From the NCBI GenBank assembly GCA_000091205.1, contig AP006502.2: DNA of 64,000 nt; one strand, written 5' to 3'. This DNA is from Cyanidioschyzon merolae. Taxonomy: Eukaryota. Of this stretch, positions 29,506-61,785 are shown piece by piece. Each line of letters opens with the position of its first letter. Within the stretch, counting starts at the first letter, position 1. Below the pieces are notes generated by a model. The model was not told the origin of the DNA, searched no databases, and saw only the letters and a list, made by a program, of their open reading frames with translations. The position numbers and the translations under genes are program-made.

Positions 29506-29635
29506 CGCTTCCTGCCGCATTACGCGGCTGTTTGAAGACGGCAAACAGCACAACGCACAACGGACTCCGAAGACTGGTGTTTGATCAAGACCACTTATTC
29601 GTAGTTATGCGAGAAACGGTCTTTGACTCGAGAAA

Positions 29636-31483: not shown

Positions 31484-32650
31484 TTCGAAATCGCTTGGTG
31501 GTGCTGTTCACGTCGCCAGCTGCGGCTCTGAATGCACCAACGCATATCATGATCTCCAGTGAGACATGTCGCCGCTCGACAAATAGACTCCAGGCGATCA
31601 GGCTTCGCAGTGGTCGATTTACGGCACTGCGCTTCTGTAGAGTGATAAGCGGCAAGTACTTCGTTTTCCAAGCACGTTCTACGTTTGCACGCTCAGACGA
31701 ATGGCCGGAACATCGGTATCATCGGACTGATCATGCATTGCATGCGCGAATGCACCTTGGACGAAACGTTCTACCTCCATGAAGCGACGTGCCGTGCCAG
31801 GATCCAGCGTGGCGAGTCGAAATGACAATGTCGGTGCATCAGCAACGATGACGCAACGCAGCAGCGGACGCGTTTCCGGTCCCGCTACCGGCGATAGTAA
31901 TCTTCCGCTAACGTGCACTCCAGCGCATACCGAAAGATTCCCAGGCTCATATCGCACACACGTGCTCGCTACTCGGATCGCTTCATCATACCTGATGGAT
32001 GCCTGATGGCTTGGGATTCCATTGCGGTTGGCCATGACTCCGTCCGGAGGTGCGTTCGCATCTGCATGGCAGCGAGTTTTCCATGTCTGGTCGTTGCTGA
32101 TACGAAAGCGTAATCGCTCTCGATCCAGTCATGACATTTGGAACGAATCCGCTGCTTATGTGCTGAGGAAATCGCGAAGACTAGTGAATGCGCGTGTGAT
32201 GAGCAATAAACGATACACTGAACGCAGCGATCGGGAACGATGGCGAGGGAGTGACGGCAGCGGAGAATCGATGCAGCCGCGCTAACACAGTAAACAACAT
32301 GACGAGCATCTCTGAAAGCGTACTACGCTCGCTTTACCAAAATTTACACTCTACCGATACCACGCACCACATCAAAGAGCTGCGTTCCACTCAACAGAAC
32401 CTCGTCTCTGCCAATAGAGCCGTCGTGTTCCGCTGCGTACTCGTATGAGACGAGTCACAACAGGAACTTGCGCGGTATCCGAATAGGTCATTGGTTTTTT
32501 TTCATCGCTAGATGCAATCGTTCCGCCCGAACTGCATCCGGATGCGGATATGTATGCCACCATCCCGCTGCTGTGCGATGCAGGCGATGCGATGCACGCG
32601 TCCCTACTCGGAGATCGCTGCCATCCAGCGTCACTGAGGTGTCCGGTTCG

Positions 32651-32678
32651 TGCGTGCGTGCGTGCGTGCGTGCGTGCC
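32651..32678. repeat. (TGCG)7 microsatellite.
   Basis: gtgcgtgcgtgcgtgcgtgcgtgcgtgc read directly. Confidence 0.9.
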
Positions 32679-33416
32679 AGGGTACAGGGTCGGGCGCACG
32701 CATCAGGCCGGTGAGGTTGGACATAGCGCCCATTCCTGGTACGCCTGCAGCGCTGATGCGCGAGTTTCGTTGACGAATGCCCGCGCGTCCATCGTGCTGT
32801 GCGTGTCTTCCGGTGCACCTGAGGCACCACTCAGAGACGCAAGTACCGGGTGCGTCTGAGGTATCTCTTCGTCATGTGCTGGTTGCAGTGGTCGATTTCC
32901 AGAGGCTTGCTCCTTGCGAGTCCATTCGGCCATGATTCCGACCGAGGTGCTGTTTGCTGATGTCCAAGGTCGACGGATTCGTCGCAGTTCCAGTCCGGGG
33001 ACGCTTTGCAGGTGATTGAAGGAGCGGGTTTGTGCCGATTGTATCCTATTCGCTGTGAAAGCGCCAGCTTGCCAGCGATGAAGCGCGGAAGCCCGGCTTG
33101 GCTATCATTCTCGTTTTGTGCAGTTCCAGAAAGAACAACGGTCATGTGAATCCAGTCCAGCACTGGATGCACCGACTTTCATGTGGACAATCGCGTGGGC
33201 GCTTCAGGATCGGCATTCGGATCTGATGATTTCTCGTCGGGCCGCGTGGATGCCAGACATTCCACATGCGCTCGTGCTCGCCATCCCGTGGCCGTCAGGA
33301 AGAGCGCGTCGCCAGTCGCGTCAGCACAGAGCGTGTCTAAACCCGAAAAACATCCAGACGCTCCGCTGATACGCACGATGGAGACCTGCTCGTATAGGGA
33401 GGCTGCGACGCCATCG

Positions 33417-35186: not shown

Positions 35187-36851
35187 AACTAAGCACCAAC
35201 AACACCACCTTCGAATTGCGCGTGTACAGGTCAGCGTGGGTTAATCGTCTGGCACCCCTCCCCCATAGCGCCCCAGCAGCGAGAAGAAGCTCACCGAGCA
35301 GTTTCCCTTCGGCAGGAGCCCCGCCAAGCGCTGCACAGATCCGCTCGCCTCTGGCACCTCTGACGCCGCAGTCGGTGCCGTCGCCTGCGCACAGATCAGG
35401 CGTGACGCGTCGTCCGATCGGTGCAACGTTGACACCCGGGACGGGTGAACACGACGCCGGTGCACGCGACCTGCTGGAATCTGCAATGACGCTGGGATCG
35501 ATGCCGTCCCCCGGAAACCAAAAGCATCTGTATATCCTGGAGCGTCTAGGCATGCTCATCAATAAAGCATTAATAGTTGTCTTTTCCATGGCGCCGCGGT
35601 TCTTAGCTGGCGACATTCCTCGAACTGCGGCGCGTCGCCACCTGCACATCCCCGTTTTCGGGGAGTTTCTTGTCACATGGATACCTGCTAATCGAAGAGA
35701 TTGCGAACGATTTTGCTTCCAGGGCTAGCGAGAGAGAGTCGAATCTCACCAGAGACCACTCGCTTCGTTGGGGTCTCGAGTAGCCAGGCCACCGTTCTCA
35801 CTGGAAAGCATTTACCGCCAAGAAGAAATGGCAGTCTGGTTCATGGCATATTTCCTAGAATGGGGTCGTTTTGTGTACGGTCTACGTTCCCGTTAATCGT
35901 CTTGTGCATCAGGCTTTGTTTCTCTCTCTTCTTGTTTATCTGTAAAAGAGCAGACACCACCCAGTAACTGGCAACTAGTAAAATAATGTATTTCCCCTAT
36001 ACAGTAAGAAATGAAAGACAGGAAAGTTTTGCGCACGTTCGAAAGTTCAGGTTCAGGACGGAAGATCCCGCGAGCCGTATGATTCTATCGAGCTCGTGCC
36101 TCACGTGATCCACACTGGCGGGTGTTGTGGCGAGACCTGCGCACCTCGTCCGCAAAGCAGTCCTTTTCTGGAACGAGGAGTGCGCTGCCTGCGCCAAAGC
36201 GTCGTCCCGGTCGCTGAGGTCTCCCGACATGTCGTTTCCGGCCGCTGCCGGTTCCAGATCTATGAGAACGTCCGGCTGGATCCCGAATTGACATTGAAAT
36301 CCCAGCCCGTATCGAGTGCACCATACCTCGACCAGACGCCCCAGCGGTATGGGAAAGCCAATCCGTCTCCGTGCTGTATCGGCAACGGCGCGACTAGCGC
36401 TGAACCGGACGCTCCCAGCAGGCTCGGTGTCGGCGAAACGTACTAAATAACCAGCATCTTGTAGAGACTGTACGGGTGGTGGCAGCTGAAAGAATTCGGA
36501 GCTAGGGTACGAAATGATAGACGGTTTCCCACTTGCTGACGTCCATCTCGAAATCGCAGGGACCCCTGGTCCATTTTTTTCACTGACAAACCGTTTACAT
36601 AGGCCAGCGTTCTCCGATTAGGCGCATTTTTCTTTTCTTACTTTTTTCTGTGTTTTTTTTCAGTGCGCGGTGAGGTATCCATCAATCACCTACCTCCGAG
36701 TTACATTACACCCCTGGTCCATGCGAACCTCCTGCCGATCAGAAATCATGCGGACACGTCACCTGGCGGCGCTTCAGTTGAACACGTGTGCGTGTGCGCG
36801 CGAGGCTGCGTTTGACCGCGAGCGGCGGCGCGCGGCCGTAAATCCCGCACG

Positions 36852-38327
36852 ATGCGAACGTTTTTCCCCAGACGTGTTCGTGACTACAAGGCACGTTTCA
36901 AGATGCCAGGTTCGCAGCCCCTGCGCGTGGCTTGCATAGGTGCTGGATACGTAGGAGGACCAACCATGGCAGTCATTGCGGCAAAGACTCCTCCAGAGGC
37001 TGTACAAGTGCGGGTGCTTGACCTCTCAGCGGAGCGCATTGCCGCCTGGAACTCGGAGCGGCTTCCTATTTATGAACCTGGTCTCTCGGAGTTAGTCTTC
37101 GCTGCTCGCGGGCGAAACTTACACTTCTCCACAGCTATTGATGACGGCATCAAGTGGGCCGACATAATATTTGTGGCCGTAAACACACCAACGAAGGAGT
37201 GTGGTATCGGGGCGGGCGCAGCCGCTGACCTCACTTACGTCGAGCTGGCGGCTCGTCAGATTGCTGCTGCGGCCGATACACCCAAAATCGTCGTCGAAAA
37301 AAGCACTGTACCGATACGCACAGCGGAGGCTCTGAGCGCGATCCTCGAAGCGTGTGGCAGGACCTCGTTCGAGATCCTATCGAATCCGGAGTTCTTGGCA
37401 GAAGGCACTGCGGTACGCGATCTCTGTGAGCCTGATCGCGTGCTCATCGGCGGGGACCTGAAAACCGAGCGAGGGCGCCAAGCGCTCGAAGCCCTCGTCG
37501 AGCTCTACGCCTATTGGGTTCCTCGCGAGCGCATTCTCACGACGAATGTGTGGTCGAGCGAGTTGAGCAAACTCGTCGCGAACGCATTTCTGGCCCAGCG
37601 CGTGTCATCGATCAACTCCATTTCGGCGCTGTGTGAACTAAGCGGAGCACAAATCGACGAAGTCGCGCGCGCCGTAGGCCTCGACAGACGCATCGGACCT
37701 CGCTTTCTTCAGTGCAGCGTGGGCTTTGGCGGATCATGTTTCCAAAAAGACATCCTTAATCTTGTTTACCTGTGTGAGTCGTTTGGTCTGAATGTTGTCG
37801 CAGATTACTGGCGTTCGGTGATCGCCATTAACGATTGGCAAAAACAGCGATTCACGGCGCGAATTTTGCATAGCCTCTACAACACGGCCACAAACAAGAA
37901 AATCGCGATTCTCGGCTTTGCGTTCAAGAAGGACACGGCGGACACCCGAGAGAGCGCCGCCATTGATGTCTGCGGCAGTCTACTGCAGGAATGCGCGAAG
38001 CTGAGTATCTACGATCCCCAGGTGCCAGCCGAGCAGATCTGGTCTGATCTCACGCGAAGATGCCGTCGAACGCGCGACGAGCTCGCTGCCTATGTGACGC
38101 TCGCCGCTACTGCCGACGAGGCCGCCGCCGGCAGCCACGCAATTGTGATCCTCACCGAATGGGATGAGTTTCGAACCCTTGATTATTCGAAAATGTACAA
38201 GAGCATGTGCCGACCGGCATTTCTGTTCGACGGCAGGAGCGTCTGCGACCTCAAAGCGCTCTCCGAGATCGGATTTTTATGTTATGCGATTGGAAGCCCG
38301 GATGACTCGCGAATTCAACTTCGTTAG
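36852..38327 (+). CDS. UDP-glucose 6-dehydrogenase.
   Basis: NAD-binding VACIGAGYVGGPTMAVIA, catalytic GFGGSCFQKDILNL and C-terminal GFAFKKDTADTRESAA. ATG at 36852; the second Met at 36903 (MPGSQPLRVACIGAGYVGG) is a likely alternative start. Confidence 0.9.
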   Translation: MRTFFPRRVRDYKARFKMPGSQPLRVACIGAGYVGGPTMAVIAAKTPPEAVQVRVLDLSAERIAAWNSERLPIYEPGLSELVFAARGRNLHFSTAIDDGIKWADIIFVAVNTPTKECGIGAGAAADLTYVELAARQIAAAADTPKIVVEKSTVPIRTAEALSAILEACGRTSFEILSNPEFLAEGTAVRDLCEPDRVLIGGDLKTERGRQALEALVELYAYWVPRERILTTNVWSSELSKLVANAFLAQRVSSINSISALCELSGAQIDEVARAVGLDRRIGPRFLQCSVGFGGSCFQKDILNLVYLCESFGLNVVADYWRSVIAINDWQKQRFTARILHSLYNTATNKKIAILGFAFKKDTADTRESAAIDVCGSLLQECAKLSIYDPQVPAEQIWSDLTRRCRRTRDELAAYVTLAATADEAAAGSHAIVILTEWDEFRTLDYSKMYKSMCRPAFLFDGRSVCDLKALSEIGFLCYAIGSPDDSRIQLR

Positions 38328-38401
38328 CGCGTACGCAGCGACTTGACTGGATCTATGGCGCTGATGCGCTCCCTGTCATGAACCCAGTAAAACCACATTT
38401 G

Positions 38402-39076
38402 TTAGAACGGTGCGATACTGACGCGCATGAGCTCCACGTCGTAAGTTAGCGTTTCATTTGGCGGAACGAGGCAGCCTTGGCCCTCAATGCAGACGCCCCG
38501 CTCTCCGAAGCCTAGTTCACTGGGCACGATTATTCGACGTTTGCCACCAGTTTTCATGGTTTCGATTCCCTTCTCCACGCCCGGCACCATCTGCTTCTTA
38601 CCAAAAATGAATGCCAGCGGCTTTCGCCCTTTTGCAGTTGTGTTATCGAAAATCGTGCCATCCGATAGGTACCCAATGTAGTTGATGACCACGAGGTCGC
38701 CGTCCTTCGGGCTAGCTCCAGTGCCTTCCTTGTAGTCGCGATAGAGCACACCGGATGGATCGCGCACGAACTTTGAGAGGTCCAATTTTTGAGGAGTCGT
38801 AGTGCCTGCCGCTCGTGCGCCTTCCAAGCCCGGAAGCCGGAGCCACGCACTCACGCCAGCCATAAATAAAAGGCGTTCTAGCAACTGACGTCGGGTCAGC
38901 GATAGAGCCAGCGGCAGGGCTGCTCGCAAAGTCGTTCTTCCGTTGCTACCAGCCGACAGGAAGCAACGGCTACGATGCTTTCGCGGCAACTCCTTTCCAG
39001 AACGAGTCCTCTGCAGGTTCCTAGCGTTGAGGGCGACTCCGTGCCCAGGCACAGGTTGCACACCGACGAAAACCAT
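38402..39076 (-). CDS. FKBP-type peptidyl-prolyl cis-trans isomerase with a transit peptide plus twin-arginine (lumenal-type) signal.
   Basis: FKBP core GDLVVINYIGYLSDGTIFDNT...FIFGKKQMVPGVEKGIETMKTGGKRRIIVPSELGFG. RRQLLERLLF followed by a hydrophobic stretch. ATG at 39076. Confidence 0.8.
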   Translation of the reverse strand: MVFVGVQPVPGHGVALNARNLQRTRSGKELPRKHRSRCFLSAGSNGRTTLRAALPLALSLTRRQLLERLLFMAGVSAWLRLPGLEGARAAGTTTPQKLDLSKFVRDPSGVLYRDYKEGTGASPKDGDLVVINYIGYLSDGTIFDNTTAKGRKPLAFIFGKKQMVPGVEKGIETMKTGGKRRIIVPSELGFGERGVCIEGQGCLVPPNETLTYDVELMRVSIAPF

Positions 39077-39289
39077 AGCACTCCGTGTTCCTGCTCGAAA
39101 CGGCTGCAGCAGTTGCAGGACAGTGCGTCTTCAAGGATGCTGCTGGTGCGCACATGCGTCAGCGGCCGATCGCCTACACCCACCAGATGGGACGGTTTGT
39201 TTGTTATCGAATATGTGCCGCTATCTTTCGCTCCTGAATTAGGTTTTGCGTTGAAGGATCGATGCTTTGGACTTGAGCATGATGGAAGG

Positions 39290-40370
39290 GCTCGTGGATT
39301 GATCCGTAGTTTTAGAATTTTCGGTTGTCGTTTTTGCTTGCTCATCTAGACTCTCTTCTGCGGGACGTCGTTCTGACCCCGGCATCGAGATGATTCGCGA
39401 CGCACGCGAACAAGGATTCGTAAACTAAATAACAGGATCACCCGGTTCGGAAGTGCAAGCGTCCATCCTTTTACTGTTTCTTAAGTGAAACGTATTCATA
39501 GCACGCATTCTTCATGTTTTCGATCGTTCTGTTTCAAGGTGACTCATGGGCGCTGCAATGCACGCCAGTGAATTGACGTCGAAAACAGCATCTCACAAGT
39601 TCATGCCAAAACTTGACAACATATATGATGTGGAATCATCTATTCCGTTCGAAAAACAAATCAGCCTCTCCTTGTGGCTAACGATGAAACCGCATACGAC
39701 AGCAGTAGAATTCCGCAGACGGGATTCGCTCCTGAAGGCTGACGTCTCTTTGATTCATACGGAAAAGGAGCCCGGACTCTGACGAACTTCAGTGATCGCA
39801 GCGATCGACTCCACTGGTGCATGCGTCACCGCTTGGCGTGAGGCGAGCGCAGACGGATCGAACATTCTCGGTGTACTCCCCAGTCTCGATTTTCTTTCGG
39901 TCCTTGTTTCATCATAGACAAGATACCATTCCACAAATCCTCGATCGAATGGAGCAGCGTGTGCTTGCGTTTTCAGCAGGCAGATTACTCACTCGGAAAC
40001 CGCCCTAGAGAAGCCCGTGACCATCGAGCGATGCACCTGGCGCGGAATCCGGCGCTGGCATCGAGGGGGACCTTCTGTTCTCGTCAAGGGCATGAACCAG
40101 GCGCCAAACCGAGCGGTCACACGTCACAGGATAGCCCCTGGAGCACGTGAACCGGATACATCTGGGAAGACCTGGCCGCAGTCAACCGTCACAACAGCGA
40201 ATCACGGATCGGGGCTGTATACCAGGAGCATGTGGATTGCATACGAAGCGTAGATCACAACGACGGCATGTGCACGAACCGCACTGAATACAGCTGGGGG
40301 CAGCGAAATCGGGACGTGACTGCTGACACGAACAATCCTCGACTGCTGAAAACGGAGCTCGATGGATACG
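39290..40370. repeat. IR2-L: left arm of a 1.08-kb inverted repeat pair.
   Basis: ORFs 39546..39782, 39959..40150, 40017..40253 and the C-terminal part of 40182..40604 recur inverted at 51,290-52,370 with 1-2 substitutions each. The coordinate sum is constant at 91,658. Boundaries were checked by reverse-complementing the ends. Confidence 0.9.
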
Positions 40371-40838
40371 ATTGAGCGGCTTATTTATAGTCGTAGATAA
40401 GAGAGCGAGGAAGAGAAAGCATTCCCCGATGTTTTTTCTCAAAGACTGGTGTCCATAACTGTGTGAAAAGACCGGAACCTTGCTGTATACGTCCGAGTTG
40501 CGTAGAAGACCCTGTTCCATTTTATTCTGAAATGAGTGTCTCGTCATGATGCGACTCACACATAGAATCGCAATGATGGAAAACGTCCGCCATAGCGACT
40601 GCAAAAATCGCTCGACATGCTCCTAGCGGTGCAACGAGGAGCCATCCGACCAGATGACGTTTGAGCGAACTCGACGCCGGAGATACGCCACCCAACATGC
40701 ACCAGAGTCGACGCCTGCGACCTGCTCAGGACCGCGTTCAGGACATTGGCTCGCGTAGGATACGGTGTGAAGATGCTGGCGTCCGTGGTGTCGGTCAGAG
40801 GCTCCGACTCTCCGCCTTGTACTCAGCGAATAGGTTCC

Positions 40839-41285
40839 TTAAGATTGGTCTCCTGCGCCGCGACGATAGTTCGGAATCGGGGGCGTCTCAGTTGGAATCC
40901 AACGCGGCCGCTTTGGAACACTCAGGTCGGGCTCCTTAGCCAGAACTTGCTGATCGGGCGGTAGCTCTGCAACCGCCGCGTCTCGAGAGCGCGCCAGTCG
41001 CAGCAGGCGTTGCTGTAGCATAACCTCACGACGCAAGCACTGTTTATTGTACGCCCGGGCGAGTTCCGCGCCACGAGCGAGCACTTCCTCGCTCAGCTCG
41101 AGCGTTACTTTTTCGGGTGCTAACGCTGCTGTAAGTACGTCCGGCGGCTCTGCGCGTTTCTCCGTGCGGCCACTCGGTACTCGCTTCGGCGTATCGAGCG
41201 CTGGTCGACTCCCAAAGAACCAACGCTTGCAACCAGGACACAATCGTATCCTGCTCATGAGACCGATCAATTCTCTACTATGCAC
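40839..41285 (-). CDS. Hypothetical protein (148 aa). No recognisable domain.
   Basis: Only an ORF in a gene-sized gap. Weak. Confidence 0.25.
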   Translation of the reverse strand: MHSRELIGLMSRIRLCPGCKRWFFGSRPALDTPKRVPSGRTEKRAEPPDVLTAALAPEKVTLELSEEVLARGAELARAYNKQCLRREVMLQQRLLRLARSRDAAVAELPPDQQVLAKEPDLSVPKRPRWIPTETPPIPNYRRGAGDQS

Positions 41286-41835
41286 AGGAGACTGAAGCCG
41301 CCGCCACCGCCGGGCTACCGGTAACCACTTTTTTGGCGAAAAACCGGTGTCTGGGGCGCTCGTGTGGAACCCAGCGAGTACCGCCTCTCAGCACAAAAAT
41401 GGCGAAGCGCATCATGGTATCGTATCGACGCCGTCCATAGACGCTCGACACCTGCAGTACGAGCCAGTTACTAGAGCTCCCTCGCTTTATTGGAACACCG
41501 CTCTGCTGCCGGGAGCAGGTAGGAGCTCTCGAGAGAGCGCTGTACCCGGCACGCTGATAGCCGATAGTCTTTGCGAGTTACGTTGATCGAGCACTTGCGC
41601 TGCACGGCAACGCCGTTCTGCAACGTGGAGAAGGTAGAGGCTCCCTGGGGCAGCGCTGAGTTTCGGCACGCCATTCTCAGTAGTCTTCGCACTTTTGGAG
41701 ACTGGCGGTTCGGTTTATTTTCCAAGGTTATAAAAAGTCGCAGGGCAGCAGCTTTCCTGTGTCCAAGTTCAAGGGTTTCATGGCTGAGGGCAGTCTCTGC
41801 AAACATTCGGTTCATCGAAACTCACGAGCGACGCC

Positions 41836-42510
41836 ATGAACGGCAGAAAAAGTATTCTTGTCTACGAAAAATCCAGCGCTCCGCTCTTGCGCGTGCTCGG
41901 AGCGGTCGGTGTCTTTCAGGTCGCTGCCTGGGCTGCTTTCGGTGCGGTATCGTGGCGGAATAGCGGCGCGTCGACGAAAGCAACCGCTGCTACTAGTCAA
42001 GACACGGAGGAGGACGCGCCTGGGACGAGAAGCGTCACGGAAAACACGCACAGTCCCTCGAGTCGTTATCAGACATGGTGGCCTGCAGGTGGCCTGCTCG
42101 TTTCGGTTCTTTTCCTGCAGCTGATGAGTTTTTACGCCAAACGGAACGTGAAAAGCATCAGGTTTGTCGGAGACTTTGCGGAAAGAGCTCGTATCGTCAC
42201 TCACTCTCTCTTCCGTTCGGGCCGGGAAGATCAACCAAGTCGGTTGGTGCTGGAGGTTCCGACCTTTCAACTACATGCCAGCGCTACTGGGCGCACTGCT
42301 ACTAAAGAAGACCTCGTGACATTCGGCATTCGCGGATACAACTCGTTTTTCCAGATTGACCGAAAGCGGGGGCAAATCTACGATGCAACTTTGTTGAATG
42401 CGCTGCTTGAGAAAGGCGGTCAAGGCGTGATGCAAGCTGCTGCACAGCGGATGAAAACTTCGACGCCAAAACGGACGCCGTCAGCTCGCGAGCGCGCAGT
42501 CAACAGTTAG
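41836..42510 (+). CDS. Hypothetical membrane protein (224 aa) with two predicted TM helices.
   Basis: ATG ORF with hydrophobic segments (LLRVLGAVGVFQVAAWAAFGAV; WWPAGGLLVSVLFLQLMSFY). No domain recognised. Confidence 0.3.
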   Translation: MNGRKSILVYEKSSAPLLRVLGAVGVFQVAAWAAFGAVSWRNSGASTKATAATSQDTEEDAPGTRSVTENTHSPSSRYQTWWPAGGLLVSVLFLQLMSFYAKRNVKSIRFVGDFAERARIVTHSLFRSGREDQPSRLVLEVPTFQLHASATGRTATKEDLVTFGIRGYNSFFQIDRKRGQIYDATLLNALLEKGGQGVMQAAAQRMKTSTPKRTPSARERAVNS

Positions 42511-43154
42511 GCATGTCCCGGGGGCTCGTCGTTTGACGCATGGCCTGGATGCGCCTCGAAACCAAGATATTCATAGCATCGAAGGCTCCAGGCACGCCCT
42601 CAAATGTCCGACACGCTGTGAAATGTTGCGCTCGTCCTGTTGGGATGATCTCGTGACACCAAGTGCCACGGGGACCAGCGTTCTTTCATGGCATCGCTGC
42701 TGCGTATGGGACGGACCAAAATATCGAGCGTACCGCTCAAGGGTCTGCGCGTCTAGCTCCGCGACTCTTGACAGGAAGCGAGACCTGTACCGGCATGCGG
42801 TTGTGCAGCGCTTCCAGCGGACGGTTCTGCAACGTTCAAGGGTAGTTTCGAAGACCAGGGCTATACTTGAAACAGTTGGTGCTTCGTGTAAGCACTGGGA
42901 TGGTTCGTAGTTTCCAGCGCCGCATGCACCCGCTGTCTCCGGGCGGAGCATGATACCGGTCCGATTTCTGCACATCGTCTGGAACACCTTTGCTGCACTT
43001 TTGGAGACGCTTAATTCATGTTCATTCGAGGAAGAACAATTGGGCATCCTGCCTAAACACCGTTTAGTACGCAAAACTAGCATTCATAGCGAACTCACAC
43101 GGACGCTTGACTCTGGAGTTTCGTGTTTCCCGATTTTCACTAGGCGACTGCACA

Positions 43155-45615
43155 CAGGCATACGCAAAAATCGTCGGATTGGCGTTTCATGTCAGTTTCT
43201 CGCGCGTGACTTTATCAGAATATAATGCTCGTTATATACGAGATCCAAGGTAACGTAACCCATACTTCGCATCAAGACGCTTTGGTCTGCGAGGATGCCA
43301 CGGCTTTTTGCCTCAGTCACAGGATGTTCATTTTTTATCGCGCGGCGAAACGGTGCAGGTTGTCGACTGCCTCGCATTCCGACCTGCAGCAGCCCCAGGA
43401 TGTTGTGGCACGCGTTGTCGTCGCCACAGTTCCATGTGGTACCTCTGCTGGGAGAGTCCGCGCTGCTCCCGCATCTGACACACTTGCAGTGCAGTGCTCT
43501 GTGAATCCGAGACATGTACGAGTTCCTTTCTTTTCCTTTCTCTCGACTCATTCTTCGTGATGACCCACGTCGTCGCTCCGTTCGTGTTCGAGAGGCGACT
43601 TGCGCACCGCCAACACGGCAGCGACGTCCGGCATTCATAGAGGTCCGCCATACGCACATCAGGCGTTCCCGTTGACTTGTTTGTTATCGCTGCCCATGCA
43701 CTGGACGTATGACGGGATATCGGACGCTTGGCGCCCTCATCCCGCTCTCCGAGCTCGATGACCGACTCTTCGCCACTCGGTACCAGAAGAGACTGAACAT
43801 CCATGGATTGCCCTCTGGTCGAACGTGGAACGAATGGCACCTCAGGCGCTGGTATCCAGAACGAGCTCTGTCTCGCAGTCATTCCGGAAGAATGCTCAAA
43901 TACGGCCGCAGACGAGTTTCGGAAGCTTCCGAGTCTGTTATCTCGCAAATGCGGAGACAAGCAGTCACGTCGTCCGTCCGTCCGTATGTCTGTCTGTTGA
44001 TTCTTGTTTTTAGCGTTTTCCTCGCGCTGTACGCGATCCTCGCCTCGAGGTCCTTTCTTCTGCTGGTGTAAATGACGCGTTTCTGAACCGGCGCCCGAGT
44101 CCGCAGTGGTGACTGCGTCCGGAAAAACCCGGCTCCACGCCTACGAGCTTTTGGTTGCGTTTCAGAGACAGGAGGCTTTCGTCGTTTCCCATTCGACTCG
44201 AAATATTCGACTATGCTCTCGGTTGCACACTGACATCGTATCCATCCGAGAGAAAACGGAAACCTATTGGGCTGTTCATTGCTTCGGCAGCTTCGATATG
44301 GAGGCTTTGCTGGTAAACCTTCCTCTTTATTTCCCGCCTCGATTTCCTTTCGACTTCTTTCATTCTCAGAACGCCGTGGCGTCGCAGAGTGCCCATGACG
44401 GCCAAGTAACTGACACGAACGTAACAAGTTGTGAAGCCACGCTTCGTCGGCAGCAGACAGAACGTCCTGGGGTGGCGCTCGCCTCTTCTGCATTCTGTAT
44501 CCTGCTCTCGCCAAGTATTCGAAGCGTTTATACCCTCTTCCAGAGGTTTGCGCCGTCGAGGAAGCGCCAAGCGCGTCGTACACCTATGCTTCAGTCAGAG
44601 ACAAACCCTAGTCAATGGGTCTCTTCAAGTCTTCGGCGATCTCGACCGCCAGTTTCATCTTCGCTTTCCGTTCTATATCACTTGGCGGGCCGAGAACGTC
44701 GACACCCTCGAACGGTCGAGTGACGGCGGCCCAGAGAAAGTGTTTCTCTCTGTTTCTATCTGTCTCTCTCGAGACGCCCTTGGTTGCGTTTCCATGCATG
44801 AGCTGGATGTAACAGGCGGCACGACACCCGAGATTCATCTTGATGTGATGCGTTTGTATGGTCGCCCCTCAAAATGGAAAGCTCTGCGGGCATCTGTGTC
44901 ATTCCAAAGAAATACCCATTCGGTGACACTCAATGTTTCGGCATTCCGGTTTGTGCTTACGTTCGCCCGCCTCGGAGGCATTCGCGTTCACCAGCGCTCG
45001 ACACGAGACTCGAGCCAATGGCTCTGGCGTGGTCTCGGGTGCTCCGCTCGGTAGAGGCGATTCAGCGAGCGCAAAGAAAAGTTCCTATCCGGGAACGGAA
45101 GCGCGTTTGTGGCCTCTTCGCTCGTCCAATCTTTGACCTTCTTGTACCTAAGTCTTTTCTGTGATAGCAGCAAGGGAAACAAACGATCGTGTGACCCGAG
45201 TCAAGGGTCTCCAGAGAGAATCCTTAGCACGCGGAGGTTCGCAAGGGCGTTGATTTCCTTTTCCAGTCGCTAGCCCAGGATGAGTTTATACGCGAGACGA
45301 AGGCCTTTATCCGTTTGCGATAGCGCTCTCGGAGGAAAGACTTCAGCTTCAACTTGATATCCGGAACTTTTCCTTCGGTCACTGGTACGCACTCGTCGTC
45401 CATTCTTTCAGCGGAGGAATCGAGCGACACATTTCCTCTGGACACCAGACAAAGTATTCCATCTATTCCAGCAGAATCATTTTTCCTTCCCGATGAAACG
45501 CATCTTCATCTGCTAAATCGATCGAGAAAACCGCTGATTCCCAGTAACTTTCTATTGGTACAGAGCAAATGCCCCAGTTTCGACAGCACACTACTCTGGA
45601 TGCCCCTACGAGCGG
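43155..45615. repeat. IR1-R: right arm of the ~2.47-kb inverted repeat pair, reverse complement of 27,030-29,505.
   Basis: See IR1-L. The outer part (44.8-45.6 kb) is more diverged, about 5% amino-acid differences in shared ORFs plus frameshifting indels. The inner part is about 99% identical. Confidence 0.9.
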
Positions 45616-45782
45616 CGCGTCGCCTCGATTCGAACACCACCTGTCCCCCGTTCTTTTGTCGTGCAAACCTTGAATAGTTTTCTTCTACGTTTCTAGGATT
45701 CAACCTAGTTAAGTTTTTGTTTCAGGTGCACTTGGAAGCAATGACCTGTGTCGTTTCGTGACCCACAGTGCGGACCTATGCA

Positions 45783-47296
45783 ATGCTTGACCTGGGTTCA
45801 ACCGTTCTCGCGGTTTGCGGTGTAGCGCTAGCCGTCGGCGTCCTTTGCATGATGGGCGCCAACGACGTTGCGAACGTACTGGGAACTGCCTATGGTGCTG
45901 GTGCATTGCATGTACCAGTGTACTCAGGGCCAGCGAGTCTTTGGGCACGAATCAAAGGGGCAGCTCCTCTGATCCTTTTCGCGGGAGTTTTCGAGTTCGC
46001 GGGAGCGCTCTTCGCCGGCGCGAGCGTGACCGAACACGTCAGCTCCCAACTTGTCTCTGGTGGATCGGCTCGTCAGCGAGCTATCGGTGCCCTGGGGTGT
46101 CTGCTGGCGAGTTTTAGCCTTGTGACGGGGAGCACTGTGGCCGCACTGCCTGTATCTGCGTCCCACGCAACCGCTTCCGCGGTTGTTGCCAGCGGGGCGT
46201 ATCAGGTCTGGCGGCAGCGCTTTGCCAGGGTTTTGTCGAGTTCAGCTGCCTCAGGCCAACCGGAAGCGCCCATGTTGGTGCACTGGCCAGCGGTCTGGTC
46301 GATGTTAACCGCCTGGACCATGTCACCGTTTGTAGGCTTTCTTTCCGGCTACGTGCTGTATTTTATTTGCGGAGCTCGCTGTATCTCCGAGGAGGTTCTG
46401 GGACTACCCTTGCTCGCTGGCGCAATCATCGGTACTTTATCCATTTTCGTGTTCACGGCAGGCCCGCCCGATCTTCGTTTCCTCTTGAGGGACTGGATGG
46501 CCCCCATTGCGGCCGCAACGAGTAGTTTGGCGTTTGCAGTTGCTGCAACGGTGTTTCTGGTCAAACGGAGAGCATTACTCGCTCCGTACGTGGACACAGT
46601 GGTGCCTCCAGGCCAGTCCCGAGTACCTCATTCGGGACAGGACGCTTTCTCGAGTGAGTGGCAAGCGGAATCCAGTTCGGAAGAGCCTGCTCATAGTCGA
46701 GCGATAGGCTTGCGGATCTTGATGGTTTTTACGGCAGCAGCGCTGGCGTTTGCGCATGGAGGAAACGGTAAGTATACATCTAGCGATATTGCTTCGAATC
46801 ACTGAACAGCTTACTAACCACGAGGATGCAGTGACGCAATCGCGGTGCTGCGCCTTCACGTCCAGATGTCAGTAACGGCATTGCACCGCTGGTTCACATC
46901 ATCAACTATGCGCGACATGATTCAGGAGATAGAGAAACAGTTGCATCGGGAGCAATCTCGCTTTCGTTATTGGCCCTTGGCGGCGCTTCAATTCTGTGCG
47001 GTCTAACGCTATTTGGTTATCGAGTCATGCAGACAGTAGGGTATGCTATTGCGGAACTGGATTTTGCAACGGGCCTTGCAGCTCAGACGGCGGCGACTCT
47101 CTGCGTATTGGTTGCGACAACGGCTGGTATTCCGGTCAGTACGACACAGATTCTAGTTGCAGCCGTCGCTGGTGCTGCGTATTCGCAGGGCAAACCGATT
47201 CAGTATAGAACGCTAGTTCGAATAGTGCTCGCTTGGCTGCTCACGATACCGCTTTCTGCGTCTATATCGGTGATCGTTCCGTGGTTGTTTCAGTAG
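45783..47296 (+). CDS. PiT-family (PHO4-like) inorganic phosphate transporter. Two exons: join(45783..46767, 46866..47296), 471 aa.
   Basis: N-terminal PiT signature MMGANDVANVLGTAYGAG. After splicing the second signature reads FAHGGN|DVSNGIAPLV. C-terminal GIPVSTTQILVAAVAGAAY. The unspliced frame-0 ORF ends at 46805 and the downstream frame-2 ORF reopens at 46835. The track start 45768 is GTG; ATG is at 45783. Confidence 0.75.
46768..46865 (+). other. Spliceosomal intron (98 nt, phase 1) in the PiT gene.
   Basis: 5' splice site G|GTAAGT at 46768. Branch point TACTAAC at 46812-46818. 3' splice site CAG| at 46863-46865. Splicing restores the conserved GANDV.N..PL motif and the reading frame. 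Confidence 0.7.
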
Positions 47297-49027
47297 CAGG
47301 GCATTTAAACGATAACTTTTTACCGTGGTAGACGGTCGCCTCGTGAGGAATTTTTCGTTTCCCATTGATCCAGACGGAAACGACATGGGTCAAGTACCCA
47401 GAGGGCGCTGCGTATGCACACCTGGAAACGCTGCCCTCTGGATGCTCTGGAAGCTACCGAGCTCCGACGCTGCCTTTTCGCGAGTCAGAGTAGTCTAACT
47501 CGCTTTCCCTCTCCAGGAGCAGTGCGTACTTTAGGGTCAGGCGGGATGATCACACAGACCCGACCTGCAACGGTTCCTTCGAAACAGAATCTGAATGATA
47601 TACCCTTGTTACAGGGCCTCGTGTTTCGCGGAAGCCAATTTGCTCAAGTTACACCAGTTTAGCGCTTCGGCGCCTGATGCCCAAATCCACAGACCCCGCG
47701 AGTACTTCATGGGCATTTATTCGCCATCGGGTGTAGTCTTTCAGCTTGATATTCACATATGAGTTATCGAGAAAGCAGTTTCGACTGATAGCAAGTCTTG
47801 GCAAACGCTGCCAAGCCAAGAAGAGACGAGACGAGAAGAGCATCCCCAGGCACCAAATGCTGTCTGGGCAAGCGTCTCGAAGGTGCGACTGTGAACCGCA
47901 CAGAGGCACCTCGGCGAACGTCCAGTGGCGGCGACAAATGCATTCGCATTAGCTCTGTGAAGGCGGGGCGACATGTAAGCCCGGTCCGCTACCTATGGCT
48001 CCCATACGCCGCTGTGATGTGTGTGCAAGGAGCGACCTAATTCGACCGGCTCGTTGCCTGCTCTCATCAAGCATAGACTCGTTCGCGATAAGAACCGGGC
48101 TCCTAACGAGCTGCACCTAGCTTAGCGTCACCGTGGTCTAGCGCAATGACAGGCGTGCAGACTTTGCCGGGAGCTCACTCGAAGCTGCAGCGTAAAGCAC
48201 TTCGTTTCGAGTCGGAAAGTCGTTGGTTGTGTGCTCGAAATAGGCCGAGAGCGCCAACAGATCCGACCCTGATTTTCAAGATAGAGCAGGTACTGCCTGG
48301 TATTCGTCTATTGCCAAGAATCACTGTCCAGCAAAGGGAGACATAATGCTTCATATACCATTATCTGGGCCCCAAAGAGTGAACCATACCGCCAGTATCG
48401 TGAAGTCGCCAAGTCCTGCACCAATTTTCTACCAGTATTCGTTTTCCCGGGGGCAATGGATAAGGCAAGCGCACGGACGACGCTCATATACTTGCAAGTC
48501 TTTTCTACGACATATTCATAGCGATGCAACTCCGAGACCTCTGAACTGCAGACAGGATCCCCAGTCGAGCGCACTGACCCAAAATGTATCTAATCGCTAT
48601 TGAGCGACGGCTGAATTCCTTGGATGCAGCCTCGCGTTTCAGCGCCTCCTTTATATCACACTCACGAGTGCGTTGCTTCTTTTTCATCCGGTTCTAAGAC
48701 TGACGATTCGAGAGCGATATTCGTATTTCTTTGCACTACTGTCGAAAGATCCAGCGGTAGTCTGCGTGTTGCCAACAGATCTCACCAGAACCGATTCAAG
48801 TAGACCGTGCAGCGTAGGCAACAAACTGCTGGGCGCGGACGCATCACAGTACGAAAGCGTTTGTTTCTGGGATTTCACTTGACGTATAACGTTGCGTACC
48901 AAAAACGACGCAGAATAGTTGTGTCTTTTCCAGGATCCGGAGCGGTGGAAACAGAACGAGCTGTCTCGTCGGCTTCTGATTCAAGGTGTTGGCGAACCTG
49001 ATTGTTCGGAAGGTTTAGTTTACTAGG

Positions 49028-49762
49028 ATGAGCCACCCAGACCCAGGTTTTGTCTCCATGAGTTTCGACTCGGACACGCAGAGAAAGATCGTATCACATC
49101 AGCGCACATGGTCACCATACGTGGATAACGGGGGTACCGTTCTTGCGCTTGCGGGTCGTGACTATGCTATTGTTGCAGCTGACACTCGCTTGTCTGTTGG
49201 CTTCTCCATTCCAAGCCGAAACTTTACAAAAATTGTGCAGCTTACGGATCAGGCGGTGCTCGCAAGTGCAGGCATGGGCGCGGATCGACAATACCTTCAC
49301 AAAATCCTGCGGTCTCGACTCGAAATCTACAGATACCAGCACCAGAAGGAGATGTCTCTGGGCGCAATTGCACAGCTCCTCAGCAATACGCTATACAGCC
49401 GTCGATTTTTTCCGATTTACGCCTTTAATGTATTGGGAGGTATTGACGCGAACACTGGCGAGGGATTCGTCTTCGGATACGATGCAATTGGCTCATTTGA
49501 GAAAGTCAAAGTGGTATGCAGCGGCTCAGGGCAGACATTGGTGCAACCTGTACTGGACCAGCAGCTCGCTGGTCGCCAGAAATACGATGTGCCGGATGAT
49601 CAGCGCATGGCGTCTCTTAGTCTCGCTGAGGCGATCGAGTTGACACGAGACGTGTTCAACTCGGCTGCTGAACGCGACATTCTAACAGGCGATGCACTCG
49701 AACTCTACGCTGTGACTGCCAGCGGTGTTCGGTGCGAACGCTTCGAGCTTCGACGCGATTGA
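49028..49762 (+). CDS. Proteasome beta-type subunit (non-catalytic beta3-like).
   Basis: TWSPYVDNGGTVLALAGRDYAIVAADTRLS...GYDAIGSFEKV. ATG at 49028. Confidence 0.85.
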   Translation: MSHPDPGFVSMSFDSDTQRKIVSHQRTWSPYVDNGGTVLALAGRDYAIVAADTRLSVGFSIPSRNFTKIVQLTDQAVLASAGMGADRQYLHKILRSRLEIYRYQHQKEMSLGAIAQLLSNTLYSRRFFPIYAFNVLGGIDANTGEGFVFGYDAIGSFEKVKVVCSGSGQTLVQPVLDQQLAGRQKYDVPDDQRMASLSLAEAIELTRDVFNSAAERDILTGDALELYAVTASGVRCERFELRRD

Positions 49763-51289
49763 CACGGTACCACTGACGCTGGGTGCTCGCAAACCAGAAT
49801 ACGTGTGTGTAGCTTGCGGTAGCAGAAGCGTAGCTGGTGCATTTGGTGCGTCTCAGGCTTGAGCGCTTCACGAAGATGACATGGAGCGGGCCCTGGATGT
49901 GGCTCTCGTGGTGGTGGCTGTGGGTCTTCATGAGCCGCCGAATCGGCTGCAACGGCTAAGTAGTGCACGCTGCTACTCTGAAAATGAGTATAAAGTTTCT
50001 AATTTTAAATTTTTCACCGAACCATGTCGTCTCCACTGAGTTATTTTCGATGTTGGTGTCACCGTGATTTAGGCCCAGGCGCATCCATGTTTTTTTGGAG
50101 CGGGTCTCTTGAATGCGTCGCACGTTGAGGACGGAGACCGGACGGTGCGAAAGCATAGCGGAACCTGTGGAACCCCGTCGGGCATGCATCACTGCAAAGA
50201 GAGGTCATGCCGCTCGCAAAGTGCCACTGGGAATCAGCTAACGCGGATTCTTAGCACGGTATGTCCCAGTGCTTGGGTCCGCGTATCGTGGTCGAATCAT
50301 GCTCGAAGCTGGGTATCCTTCCGTAAATGATAGCGCGCTCCGCTGAAGCGGTTGTTTTGCTCCTTGAGCAGTATAAGGTCTGTCACTCTACCTTGATTCC
50401 CGTTTATCCTCGAGACTCGCCAGTAACCAGGAAATAGCTTCTCGCTGCTTCACAGACGCTTCTGACTTTCGAGAGCACTAGACCAGTCCGTCCATCGCAA
50501 GTAGAGCGTGAATCGATCAAGCAGTTCGCGGTATGCCGACCCGTCTCATGTACATGATGCGACGCTGAGCGCGCTGCAACCTGGCTCGCCGTACGGAGAT
50601 ACGATGGTATCAGCATTCCCTTTGAAGTACTTATTCTGGACGATTGGTTCCCTTGACTTGCACCCGCTTTCGGACATGTGCTGCTACCGCTTTTCTAGTT
50701 TTGCGTGACTGAAAACCGTGTTCAGCTCCGGATATCGGCGATGTTGGCTGGGTGCGTCGCCACCCGACTGGCTGAATCTATCCAAGTTTCAGCGGATGTT
50801 GTACCTCTTGGCGCACGCACGAATGGCGTATTCGAGTAAACACGTTGCTCGAATACAAAGTCTCCGGGGAGACTTTGGTGTGAGCGCGGCCACCAACAGA
50901 GCAATCCGAGTCGCGAGATGCGAAGCCCTATGGATGCTCCCGTGCATGCCCGCCTATGTTGCGTGCCAGGCCCACGGGACAGGGAGCATCGCGGCGGTAT
51001 GCCAGCAGGGACCCACACGCGACTTGTCGCTGGGACGCGGGTGCGGATTCGTGCAGGTGCACCGTGGCTAGTGGCGCTGAGGAGCGCGGAAATCTTCTTG
51101 AGTAACGGACGATAACGATGATCGCAGCAACGATTTTGGAATGAAATGGAACGGATTGCTCGACATGGATGCATAAATCGAAGTTCAGGCGTCTTCCGAA
51201 GGTCATCAATGCCAGCGTTTGCAGGTGTTAGATCCGACTGAATCCTCTTCATTTCACGTATATCAAGCTTCATATACAGCGGTTTCTTC

Positions 51290-52370
51290 TTTCCATCGAG
51301 CTCCGTTTTCAGCAGTCGAGGATTGTTCGTGTCAGCAGTCACGTCCCGATTTCGCTGCCCCCAGCTGTATTCAGTGCGGTTCGTGCACATGCCGTCGTTG
51401 TGATCTACGCTTCGTATGCCATCCACATGCTCCTGGTATACAGCCCCGATCCGTGATTCGCTGTTGTGACGGTTGACTGCGGCCAGGTCTTCCCAGATGT
51501 ATCCGGTTCACGTGCTCCAGGGGCTATCCTGTGACGTGTGACCGCTCGGTTTGGCGCCTGGTTCATGCCCTTGACGAGAACAGAAGGTCCTCCTCGATGC
51601 CAGCGCCGGATTCCGCGCCAGGTGCATCGCTCGATGATCACGGGCTTCTCTAGGGCGGTTTCCGAGTGAGTAATCTGCCTGCTGATTACGCAAGCACATG
51701 CTGCTCCATTCGATCGAGGATTTGTGGAATGGTATCCTGTCTATGATGAAACAAGGACCGAAAGAAAATCGAGACTGGGGAGTACACCGAGAATGTTCGA
51801 TCCGTCTGCGCTCGCCTCACGCCAAGCGGTGACGCATGCACCAGTGGAGTCGATCGCTGCGATCACTGAAGTTCGTCAGAGTCCGGGCTCCTTTTCCGTA
51901 CGAATCAAAGAGACGTCAGCCTTCAGGAGCGAATCCCGTCTGCGGAATTCTACTGCTGTCGTATGCGGTTTCATCGTTAGCCACAAGGAGAGGCTGATTT
52001 GTTTTTCGAACGGAATAGATGATTCCACATCATATATGTTGTCAAGTTTTGGCATGAACTTGTGAGATGCTGTTTTCGACGTCAATTCACTGGCGTGCAT
52101 TGCAGCGCCCATGAGTCACCTTGAAACAGAACGATCGAAAACATGAAGAATGCGTGCTATGAATACGTTTCACGTAAGAAACAGTAAAAGGATGGACGCT
52201 TGCACTTCCGAACCGGGTGATCCTGTTATTTAGTTTACGAATCCTTGTTCGCGTGCGTCGCGAATCATCTCGATGCCGGGGTCAGAACGACGTCCCGCAG
52301 AAGAGAGTCTAGATGAGCACGCAAAAACGACAACCGAAGATTCTAAAACTACGGATGAATCCGTACGCAC
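51290..52370. repeat. IR2-R: right arm of the 1.08-kb inverted repeat pair, reverse complement of 39,290-40,370.
   Basis: See IR2-L. Confidence 0.9.
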
Positions 52371-52966: not shown

Positions 52967-54403
52967 CTAAGCACCTGCTGACCTACGCGTCTGAAGCGGT
53001 GCCGTTCCGAGCACCTTTTGAAAAGCATCGGGTACGCGCATGCGAGGAGGCGTTCGACCGATCCCTGGGTTCCCCAACTGCCCACATGCCGCCATTTTAT
53101 CATCACCACGACTACGGCGGAGGGTCACCAGAACCCCTCGTTCGTGGAGATACTGGCGAAAAGCTTCCATTTGCGGGAGCGGACTTGGTCGAAACTCTGA
53201 ACCGGCATGTGAGTTGAACGGAATCAGGTTCACTTTGCAGGGAATATGCGCGATCAGTCTGAGTAAGCGCTTCGCGTCGTCGAGGGAGTCATTCACTCCT
53301 CCGAGGAGCACGTATTCAAAGAAAACTTTGTCACCGCGGCGAGCATCGCGGGCGTACTCCTCACGCAATGTCTCCAGAAGCACTTCCAATGGATATTTTC
53401 GATTGATCGGCATGATCCAGTTGCGCACCTCATTCGTTGTGGCATTGAGGCTCACCGCCAGATTCGCTGATGTTTCGCGCAGGTAGCGTCGTATCTCCGG
53501 GACCAGACCCGAAGTGCTCACCGTAACTTTGCGATGAGAGAGACCCATGGCCTTGGGGTCCAACAGGATCTCCAACGCTCTCAGCACGTTATCCAAATTC
53601 TGAAATGGCTCACCCATGCCCATAAAGACAATGTTCGATATTTGCGTGCTCGCCTGCCGCGGTGACTCGTAGCGAGCCTTGGTCAATGTGACCTGATCGA
53701 CGATTTCCGCTGCAGTCAGATTTCTCTGCAGACCCATTTTTCCGGTGAAACAAAACTGACAATTCATCGCGCATCCCAGCTGCGAGGAAATGCACAACGT
53801 GTTCCGACCGGAGGCAGGGATGAGCACAGACTCCACTGCCCCGGGGCTGTCACCGTCGACTTGATAGACGAGTTTGCGTGTTCCGTCCTGTGCTTCGCGG
53901 ACCTCGCGTAGCGAAAGAGCGTGCAGACGGGCACTGCTCGCCAGTGCCTCTCGGAAGAGTTTTCCAAGGTCGGTCATATCATCCACCTGCGAGGCAACTG
54001 GCGGGCGGTAAAGCCACTTGTACAACTGACGGGCACGGTATGGCTTCTCGCCCATGCCACTAACAAAGTTTTCCAGTTCTTTAAGCGTCATGCCGCTCAG
54101 CGTCCAGCAAGTCGCCTGTGACAGAGAGGCGGAGGCCACAGGCTGGAGTTGCTCGTCGCCGGCGTCATTAGGTGGTGAAGCCGGCTCCACCACATAGCGC
54201 TCGGTTGGATTCGCATCGGAGCAGCGCACTAAAATCCTCGTCGAGCGCCCTAGAACAGAGCACGGTTTCTGCGCGCGGCTCCGAAGCATGGCCACAGCTC
54301 TGCTGCGACGCAGGAACGCGTGTCCGAATCCTCCGTTCACAGCGTGCGTTGGGAACATACCCGCGAAGCCTGGACACGACTCCCTGAGCCCAACAGGCGA
54401 CAT
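52967..54403 (-). CDS. Radical SAM rRNA/tRNA adenine-C2 methyltransferase (RlmN/Cfr family) with an N-terminal transit-peptide-like extension.
   Basis: CX3CX2C radical-SAM motif CISSQLGCAMNCQFCFTGKMG. MGMGEPFQN and VNLIPFN motifs. The track start 54418 is GTG; ATG (MSPVGLRE...) is at 54403. Confidence 0.85.
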   Translation of the reverse strand: MSPVGLRESCPGFAGMFPTHAVNGGFGHAFLRRSRAVAMLRSRAQKPCSVLGRSTRILVRCSDANPTERYVVEPASPPNDAGDEQLQPVASASLSQATCWTLSGMTLKELENFVSGMGEKPYRARQLYKWLYRPPVASQVDDMTDLGKLFREALASSARLHALSLREVREAQDGTRKLVYQVDGDSPGAVESVLIPASGRNTLCISSQLGCAMNCQFCFTGKMGLQRNLTAAEIVDQVTLTKARYESPRQASTQISNIVFMGMGEPFQNLDNVLRALEILLDPKAMGLSHRKVTVSTSGLVPEIRRYLRETSANLAVSLNATTNEVRNWIMPINRKYPLEVLLETLREEYARDARRGDKVFFEYVLLGGVNDSLDDAKRLLRLIAHIPCKVNLIPFNSHAGSEFRPSPLPQMEAFRQYLHERGVLVTLRRSRGDDKMAACGQLGNPGIGRTPPRMRVPDAFQKVLGTAPLQTRRSAGA

Positions 54404-54651
54404 GTCGATTTCGGACACCGACCTTGCGGTCTCCGAAACTTGTCGTCGTCCGCCGGTCTAAAACGCTGGAACAAACCAGCGTCGACATGCCGGATATGTC
54501 GTCCGGGTGGACGCGTGGAGCGGCGCGGGCTACGGCCTCGCCATGAACGCTTCGGGAATGAGTGTTGCTCGCTGACGCCTTGGGAACGCTGTATTCCTGT
54601 ACCGCTTGAGCGATATTTCCGAGCTCGAGTGCTACTCGCTTTTCTGGAGGC

Positions 54652-61588: not shown

Positions 61589-61785
61589 TAAAGCATTCCA
61601 GGCGTCTCTTGAGCGTGTTCGTCTCACAAACGAAAGTTCGCCAGCGCCCACGCACGAAAAAGCCCTCGTGGCAGCGGTGCACTGCAGTGGCGATCGCCGC
61701 GCTCTGGACTAGACATCACCAACTTACGCGCAGACGCCTCGCAGTTTTCTTGGACCGTCCACCCACTACTACTTACAACTTTTTC

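Follow-up and report, generated by a model that had tools for sequence, protein, structure and literature searches.

How two unrelated pairs of nearly identical inverted repeats came to be interleaved, with one arm of each pair lying between the arms of the other, is the question raised by a locus on chromosome 20 of Cyanidioschyzon merolae 10D (around CMT472C-CMT475C). The repeats, designated IR1 and IR2, lie in a 64,000-nucleotide stretch of nuclear DNA from contig AP006502.2, which was analysed at its full length (the window; all positions are counted from its first letter). Alignment with Cyanidiococcus indicated that 10D carries an inversion bounded by IR2 (block 40367-51291; 13 kb with the IR2 arms) relative to the ancestral order that this sister genus has kept. 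The locus as a whole is likely to be explained by four insertions from two dispersed repeat families together with an inversion by recombination between the IR2 copies.

Repeat geometry and the inverted block

A self-comparison of the whole window placed the arms of IR2 at 39296-40366 (+) and 51292-52362 (-), 99% complementary and 10925 nt apart; in a base-by-base comparison the two 1071-nt copies differed by 12 mismatches with 0 indels (98.9% identity). IR1 was recovered as three collinear pieces of 98-99% identity with two single-base indels between them, its left arm occupying 27046-29504 (+) and its right arm 43151-45611 (-); besides the indels, the arms (about 99% identical) differ at 23 bases. 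Along the window the order is IR1-L, IR2-L, IR1-R, IR2-R (A-B-A'-B', where A is IR1 and B is IR2), and matches of such length and identity cannot be due to chance. No similarity between IR1 and IR2 was detected using blastn (word size 7), tblastx or nhmmer. A first-pass annotation of this DNA had described a reverse-complement match between 39.3-40.4 and 51.3-52.4 kb, an IR2 identity of about 98-99% without indels as far as the inner end, the interleaved order and a lack of sequence common to the two pairs, all of which was borne out; it had also stated, correctly, that recombination within one pair reverses an arm of the other.

Each arm lies in a spacer between genes: IR1-L between TPT and Tdp1, IR2-L between FKBP and an open reading frame (ORF) of 139 amino acids, IR1-R between the TMEM70-like gene CMT473C and the phosphate transporter gene Pht2/PHO4, and IR2-R between the proteasome beta-6 gene and an RlmN-like gene. 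The 10D order can be written X0 A S1 B S2 A' S3 B' X1. Here X0 is the left flank, of which TPT is the last gene, and S1 (29505-39295) is the unique segment between IR1-L and IR2-L, which holds Tdp1, mTERF, UDP-glucose dehydrogenase and FKBP. S2, also called U2 (40367-43150), holds the conserved 139-amino-acid ORF and TMEM70, S3 (45612-51291) holds Pht2 and the proteasome subunit, and X1 is the right flank, beginning with RlmN.

A comparison with related species, as proposed in the first-pass annotation, was carried out on loci of two Cyanidiococcus genomes, that of Cyanidiococcus yangmingshanensis (GCA_013995675.1, contig L042) and GCA_041825655.1 (contigs L037 and L039), and on a matching metagenome contig (L040), all of which were reached through their Tdp1 and PHO4 homologues. 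The gene order of the outgroup is TPT, Tdp1, mTERF, UDP-glucose dehydrogenase, FKBP, proteasome, PHO4, TMEM70, an ORF of 129-140 amino acids, RlmN and TAFII55, so that FKBP stands beside the proteasome gene and RlmN beside the small ORF and TMEM70. In a tblastx map, X1 and S1 (the latter collinear with the outgroup) aligned in one orientation and S2 with S3 in the opposite one. The inverted block comprises the 139-amino-acid ORF, TMEM70, IR1-R, Pht2 and proteasome beta-6, and no gene is split or fused by its inversion. Its breakpoints lie within the two spacers that hold IR2, which places inverted repeats at both ends of a segment found in both orientations. All four repeats were missing from the outgroup loci, where neither inverted repeats nor any similarity to IR1 or IR2 was detected (blastn, tblastx, nhmmer).

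Spacer lengths, calculated from gene coordinates, fit four insertions. Without its repeat, the TPT-Tdp1 spacer that holds IR1-L measures about 350 nt in 10D (449 nt in the outgroup) and the TMEM70-PHO4 spacer that holds IR1-R about 810 nt (about 650 nt). When the spacers are rejoined in the ancestral order and IR2 is removed, the FKBP-proteasome spacer measures about 1750 nt (1390-1640 nt in the outgroup) and that between RlmN and the small ORF about 1080 nt (855-1000 nt). On this arithmetic the four repeat copies look like insertions into intergenic spacers.

The ancestral order with repeats in place reads X0 A S1 B S3' A S2' B' X1, in which the IR1 copies are direct and the IR2 copies inverted; the A-B-A'-B' layout would therefore be a consequence of the IR2 inversion. 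In the sequence of events that we propose, four young copies from two unrelated dispersed families would have inserted into intergenic spacers, giving an ancestral state with direct IR1 and inverted IR2 copies. Ectopic homologous recombination between the inverted IR2 copies would then have flipped the 10.9-kb block, producing the 10D order, turning IR1-R around and creating the interleaved arrangement.

Nature of the two repeat families

IR2 is, on the evidence of its copies within the window, a discrete, non-coding, dispersed repeat of 1.07 kb, present several times at unrelated sites with the same termini. An old full-length copy (13071-14163, +) lies between an organellar-type DNA polymerase A gene and TruD; it is about 59% identical and covers element positions 3-1070 (nhmmer E = 2.4e-70). 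An old partial copy (24459-24883, +) covers element positions 648-1064 (E = 5.3e-22). Alignment of the copies revealed common ends, GGAT... and ...GGAGCTnGAnGGA. When translated, the ORFs of the old copies show no relationship, and the family is considered non-coding on that account. IR2 ORFs gave no Pfam match, IR2 gave no Rfam match even in a permissive scan, and a scan of viral contigs for IR2 was negative. Neither terminal inverted repeats nor target-site duplications were found at the IR2 boundaries, and IR2 does not show the hallmarks of a known transposon class.

IR1, by contrast with IR2, bears the remains of a coding sequence. The close relatives of its 287-amino-acid ORF are its own environmental variants only; in an exhaustive HMMER search the ORF showed 25-30% identity over approximately 200 residues to proteins of 313-688 amino acids, which carry the Cas12f1-like TNB domain PF07282 (phmmer E = 3e-6 to 3e-4). 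One of these proteins (P0045) matched the window by tblastn across 28179-29093 (E = 3e-30), with its residues 320-688 mapping to 28179-29316 and N-terminal fragments further upstream. P0045 in turn matched the structure of Fanzor1 from Spizellomyces punctatus (SpuFz1, 8GKH; E = 1.5e-12), and a profile that included the IR1 translation (A2) matched 8GKH at 1.5e-21. RuvC-I, GFGDW-like and RuvC-II/zinc-ribbon motifs were aligned in the IR1 frame. Pfam matched neither the individual ORFs of IR1 nor their joined translation, and no ORF within IR1 or IR2 is among the annotated 10D proteins (exact protein look-up). By homology, which is transitive through P0045, IR1 encodes a protein related to the RuvC and zinc-ribbon (TNB) core of Fanzor/TnpB.

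The Fanzor-like frame of IR1-L (28062-29327, +) is broken. It contains a RuvC-I region (GVEPG), a RuvC-II/zinc-ribbon region (YECRTS..C..C) and a degenerate RuvC-III, is interrupted by an in-frame stop at 28443-28445, and shows weaker N-terminal similarity back to about 27373. An in-frame stop, frameshifts or both were present in all eight readable IR1 copies; in RuvC-I the sequence is GVEPG as opposed to GVDPG (D-to-E), and the RuvC-III motif is lost. An intact ORF with the RuvC catalytic D-E-D triad of an active nuclease was not found in IR1. Given these lesions, IR1 is read as a broken relic of a Fanzor1/TnpB-type element and not as an active gene.

A family of this kind has been described in C. 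merolae as CMe-1A, a Fanzor1 element of about 3 kb with about 150 copies, which are about 80% identical to their consensus and are without terminal inverted repeats or target-site duplications; a Fanzor1 is also listed for white spot syndrome virus (Bao & Jurka 2013, PMC3627910). In addition, 253 copies of a 3.2-kb interspersed repeat, with an ORF weakly resembling WSV486 of the same virus, have been reported for C. merolae (Nozaki et al. 2007, PMC1955436). We consider that the 253-copy repeat is very probably the CMe-1A family. IR1 is probably a member too, judged against the published description: it has a Fanzor1/TnpB-like ORF, falls within the size range of 2.5-3 kb, comes from the same organism and, like CMe-1A, has neither terminal inverted repeats nor target-site duplications at its ends. 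It differs in that the two IR1 copies are 99% identical to one another, whereas CMe-1A members are about 80% identical to the consensus, and in that its ORF is broken with degenerate catalytic motifs. A last profile search of proteins added no named C. merolae Fanzor.

The origin that the first-pass annotation had given for the two pairs, namely independent inverted duplications, is not supported by their nature, IR1 being a Fanzor1/TnpB-like dispersed element and IR2 a dispersed repeat with older copies in the window. Nor does it fit the appearance of all four copies as insertions relative to Cyanidiococcus or the direct orientation of the IR1 copies in the ancestral order.

A near-palindrome was observed at 61750-63526, with arms at about 61750-62621 and 62652-63526 that are 83-91% complementary around a 30-nt spacer (self-comparison). 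In tblastn, both arms gave weak matches (E = 1e-4 to 2e-3) to the Fanzor-like proteins named above, in their RuvC-I region, and degenerate Fanzor-like fragments were noted at 62.4-62.9 kb, a point consistent with membership of IR1 in CMe-1A. The structure looks like two degenerate fragments of a Fanzor element placed head to head.

Environmental linkages and rival explanations

Contigs of the locus were collected from hot-spring metagenomes by exact-protein look-ups and, for three contigs, one pattern scan; they are 99.2-99.5% identical to the window. The 10D linkage RlmN-IR2-S3 was found in L010, L012-L015 and L045, and the other 10D linkage, FKBP-IR2-U2, in L046. As in 10D, U2-IR1-PHO4..proteasome-IR2-RlmN lies on the single contig L010 (21.5 kb) and U2-IR2-FKBP..Tdp1 on L046 (12.4 kb). 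The linkage of the outgroup, RlmN-IR2-U2, was found in L031 (ENA ERZ27249350, MEGAHIT, 14.7 kb) and L043 (JGI 3300005861, 14.5 kb), and the switch of flank between the two types of IR2 linkage is located inside IR2. A private haplotype of the RlmN flank is common to L031, L043 and L032 (a Logan assembly), and a private U2 haplotype to L031 and L043. As L031, L043 and L032 share a haplotype, the ancestral linkage belongs to one lineage, sampled by three independent assemblies, which argues against random chimeras. We infer from these linkages that the two orientations are real, coexisting strain variants.

At IR1, the 10D linkage U2-IR1-PHO4 was present in L010 and L011, while PHO4-IR1-Tdp1 (L001) and TPT-IR1-U2 (L021) are the two junctions expected if IR1 had flipped. 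IR1 alleles linked to the flanks are confined to the outermost 10-60 nt (27052/53/59 and 27103; 29498/29502), and the interior alleles are common to both arms; at positions 28178, 28780 and 29475 the two 10D arms share a base for which all environmental copies have a different one. Inside IR1 and IR2 alike, alleles are shuffled among flank combinations. These patterns are the signature of gene conversion or crossing-over between copies.

The first-pass annotation had predicted several structural isomers. The prediction held in so far as outgroup synteny indicates that the IR2-bounded inversion happened and both IR2 linkages occur in environmental contigs; the isomer space is smaller than it implied. 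Enumeration of paths through the repeats gave only four outcomes: the 10D order; an order with IR1 flipped, in which the IR2 copies are direct; an order with IR2 flipped, which is the ancestral one with direct IR1 copies; and a deletion chromosome with a circle, in which S1 and S3 are removed. A flip of either pair renders the other direct, hence there are three inversion isomers only, and the deletion-plus-circle product would cost the cell essential genes. IR1, being inverted in 10D, should be able to flip too.

With regard to such flips, PHO4-IR1-Tdp1 is linked in L001, both ends of which lie in IR2, and RlmN-IR2-U2-IR1 in L043; taken together, the two contigs require a mixture of isomers, the deletion-plus-circle product or an assembly error in passing through IR1. 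L001 and L021 were considered as proof of IR1 flips and were downgraded, both for allele switches located at the repeat edges and for the incompatibility of L001 with L043. Flipping through IR1 is unproven, its evidence being two contigs that may be chimeric.

Several points weigh against the proposed history. The reciprocal ancestral junction, FKBP-IR2-S3 on the proteasome side, was present in no contig; approximately 30 FKBP-bearing contigs end 120-180 nt into IR2 (nearly all of them) or cross to U2. The environmental contigs are short-read assemblies of mixed-strain metagenomes, which are prone to wrong paths through repeats. The allele switches of L001 and L021 are at the extreme edges of the repeat, that of L001 between 27053 and 27059, exactly where L002 starts, and that of L021 between 29102 and 29489. 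No single linear isomer accommodates both L001 and L043, which share the sample 3300005861. The probable CMe-1A membership of IR1 was judged from the published description of the family. The outgroup is a single, distant lineage (50-60% protein identity), and since it is the only one, polarity depends on attributing the inversion to whichever lineage has repeats at its breakpoints.

That single outgroup also leaves room for the repeats to be static and the position of the breakpoints a coincidence, the inversion having occurred in the Cyanidiococcus lineage or by an unrelated mechanism and the alternative linkages being assembler errors. The missing reciprocal junction and the resemblance of L001 and L021 to wrong paths would suit such an account. 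It seems unlikely, however, given that both breakpoints fall within the only two spacers that hold IR2, and that RlmN-IR2-U2 recurs with one private flank haplotype in three assemblies from different pipelines and reproduces the outgroup adjacency.

A second alternative reverses cause and effect, in that the inversion would itself have made IR2, with staggered breaks at a breakpoint and subsequent fill-in leaving inverted duplicates of a local sequence on either side of the block. Duplication at breakpoints in this manner is known from Drosophila inversions. The IR2 arms do flank the inverted block exactly, and IR2 lacks the target-site duplications and terminal inverted repeats of a classical transposon. 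Nevertheless, IR2 exists elsewhere as an older copy, complete and with matching termini, and as a partial one, and both spacers are about 1.07 kb longer than those of the outgroup. Furthermore, the contigs with the ancestral order (L031 and L043) already have IR2 in the RlmN-U2 spacer, and FKBP contigs of the same samples (L001 and L002) have an IR2 end beside FKBP, so that both copies seem to be present in the uninverted state. An origin of IR2 in the inversion is judged decidedly improbable on these grounds.

A programmed invertible switch, in which a dedicated recombinase or the Fanzor nuclease drives regulated flips that alter the expression of neighbouring genes, might be suggested by the apparent existence of two orientations and by the derivation of IR1 from an RNA-guided-nuclease gene family. 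We regard it as very improbable: no recombinase domain was found by Pfam among the ORFs in or near the repeats, the Fanzor frame is broken in 8/8 copies with the D-to-E change in RuvC-I and loss of RuvC-III, the repeats are copies of 1.07-kb and 2.46-kb elements and not short recombination sites, and no gene is divided or joined by the flip. Misplacement of an IR2 or IR1 copy in the 10D reference assembly, which was also put forward in the first-pass annotation as a test for IR2 and might be feared since an earlier C. merolae assembly had >20 kb of wrongly assembled sequence, and near-identical repeats where gaps had been (Nozaki 2007), is hardly credible, as L010, L011, L012-L015, L045 and L046 reproduce all 10D junctions except the full TPT-IR1-Tdp1 span, both ends of which are covered separately, and L010 and L046 in particular indicate that neither IR2 copy is an artefact.

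Known systems, significance and neighbouring genes

Inversion of DNA by non-allelic homologous recombination between inverted transposable elements or segmental duplications is familiar from yeast (Ty-mediated inversions) and from human inversion polymorphisms flanked by inverted duplications. The C. merolae locus resembles these in that inverted repeats of kilobase length and 99% identity lie at both breakpoints, that two orientations exist, and that the arms have mosaic alleles with concerted changes. It differs in having two interleaved pairs, such that inversion through one pair switches the other from direct to inverted or back, and in its haploid-phase algal host with an extremely repeat-poor genome, where recombination is deduced from sequences. 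Inverted-repeat recombination also produces orientation isomers, and direct-repeat recombination subgenomic circles, in the flip-flop of the plastid inverted repeat, in the multipartite mitochondrial genomes of plants and in the yeast 2-micron plasmid. Those systems, however, are multicopy and continuously isomerising or have a dedicated recombinase (FLP), whereas the C. merolae locus is single-copy and nuclear, and its deletion-plus-circle product would lose essential genes. The staggered-break model of Drosophila likewise has inverted repeats flanking an inverted segment and can yield an interleaved b-e'-b'-e order, but in it the two pairs adjoin at each breakpoint and arise from nearby unique sequence, while the C. 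merolae pairs lie 5.7-9.8 kb apart and belong to dispersed families.

In literature searches, neither the repeats nor the inversion was found to have been described before. We infer recombination between the repeats as the mechanism, which is then the ordinary, textbook ectopic kind; what is new is this locus as an example of it. The genome of C. merolae 10D, a model in wide use, has been described as telomere-to-telomere complete and exceptionally simple, and the locus documents a case of dispersed repeats rearranging it: repeat-driven structural variation occurs even here. Wild populations probably still contain the alternative orientation, and the locus offers a strain marker for hot-spring metagenomes, while gene targeting or synteny work around CMT472C-CMT475C may be strain-dependent. 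It also ties the '253-copy' interspersed repeat concretely to the Fanzor family. The locus most likely represents neutral structural variation caused by repeats, with no function implied. It would be something of a long shot to propose that natural populations keep flipping it through IR2, toggling IR1 between direct (a lethal path to deletion and circle) and inverted (a second inversion), with an active Fanzor elsewhere perhaps stimulating exchange by making breaks; if true, the locus would be a tractable model of repeat-driven instability in a minimal eukaryotic genome.

Pfam searches of the flanking ORFs identified Tdp1, mTERF, UDP-glucose dehydrogenase, FKBP, a PHO4-type phosphate transporter, proteasome beta-6, an RlmN-like radical-SAM enzyme and TAFII55, and flanking ORFs matched the annotated 10D proteins BAM83402-BAM83406 exactly, CMT473C among them. 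An initial reading of the window as DNA of a bacterium with extensive gene decay, its repeats resembling those of Mycobacterium leprae, was dropped in view of these matches and of Tdp1, mTERF, the proteasome subunit and TAFII55. The genes nearest the repeats are TPT (25759-26808, -), Tdp1 (29636-31483, +), FKBP (38402-39076, -), the 139-amino-acid ORF (40839-41258, -), TMEM70-like CMT473C (41836-42510, +), Pht2/PHO4 (45783-46805, +), proteasome beta-6 (49028-49762, +) and the RlmN-like gene (52967-54418, -). Rfam and tRNA scans across the window gave no matches.

The 139-amino-acid ORF has syntenic counterparts of 72-81% identity in Cyanidiococcus and bears a faint resemblance to mitochondrial ribosomal protein L28 (E = 0.02). 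As it is present in metagenome gene calls yet is not among the NCBI proteins of 10D, it is probably a gene that annotation has missed. A 140-amino-acid ORF straddling the inner end of IR2-L was considered as the counterpart of the conserved outgroup ORF and was rejected, the conserved one being that at 40839-41258. In the Pht2/PHO4 region (45783-47300, +) the 10D annotation gives 471 amino acids, while the DNA contains an ORF of 340 amino acids followed by a separate PHO4-matching ORF of 89 amino acids; the split is identical in Cyanidiococcus, which suggests one of the rare introns or a conserved frameshift. Finally, a laforin-like gene (CBM20 and dual-specificity phosphatase; 17593-19191, -) contains tandem 87-nt repeats at 18757-19102, the copy number of which varies among the environmental contigs and gives rise to a length polymorphism in the coding region.

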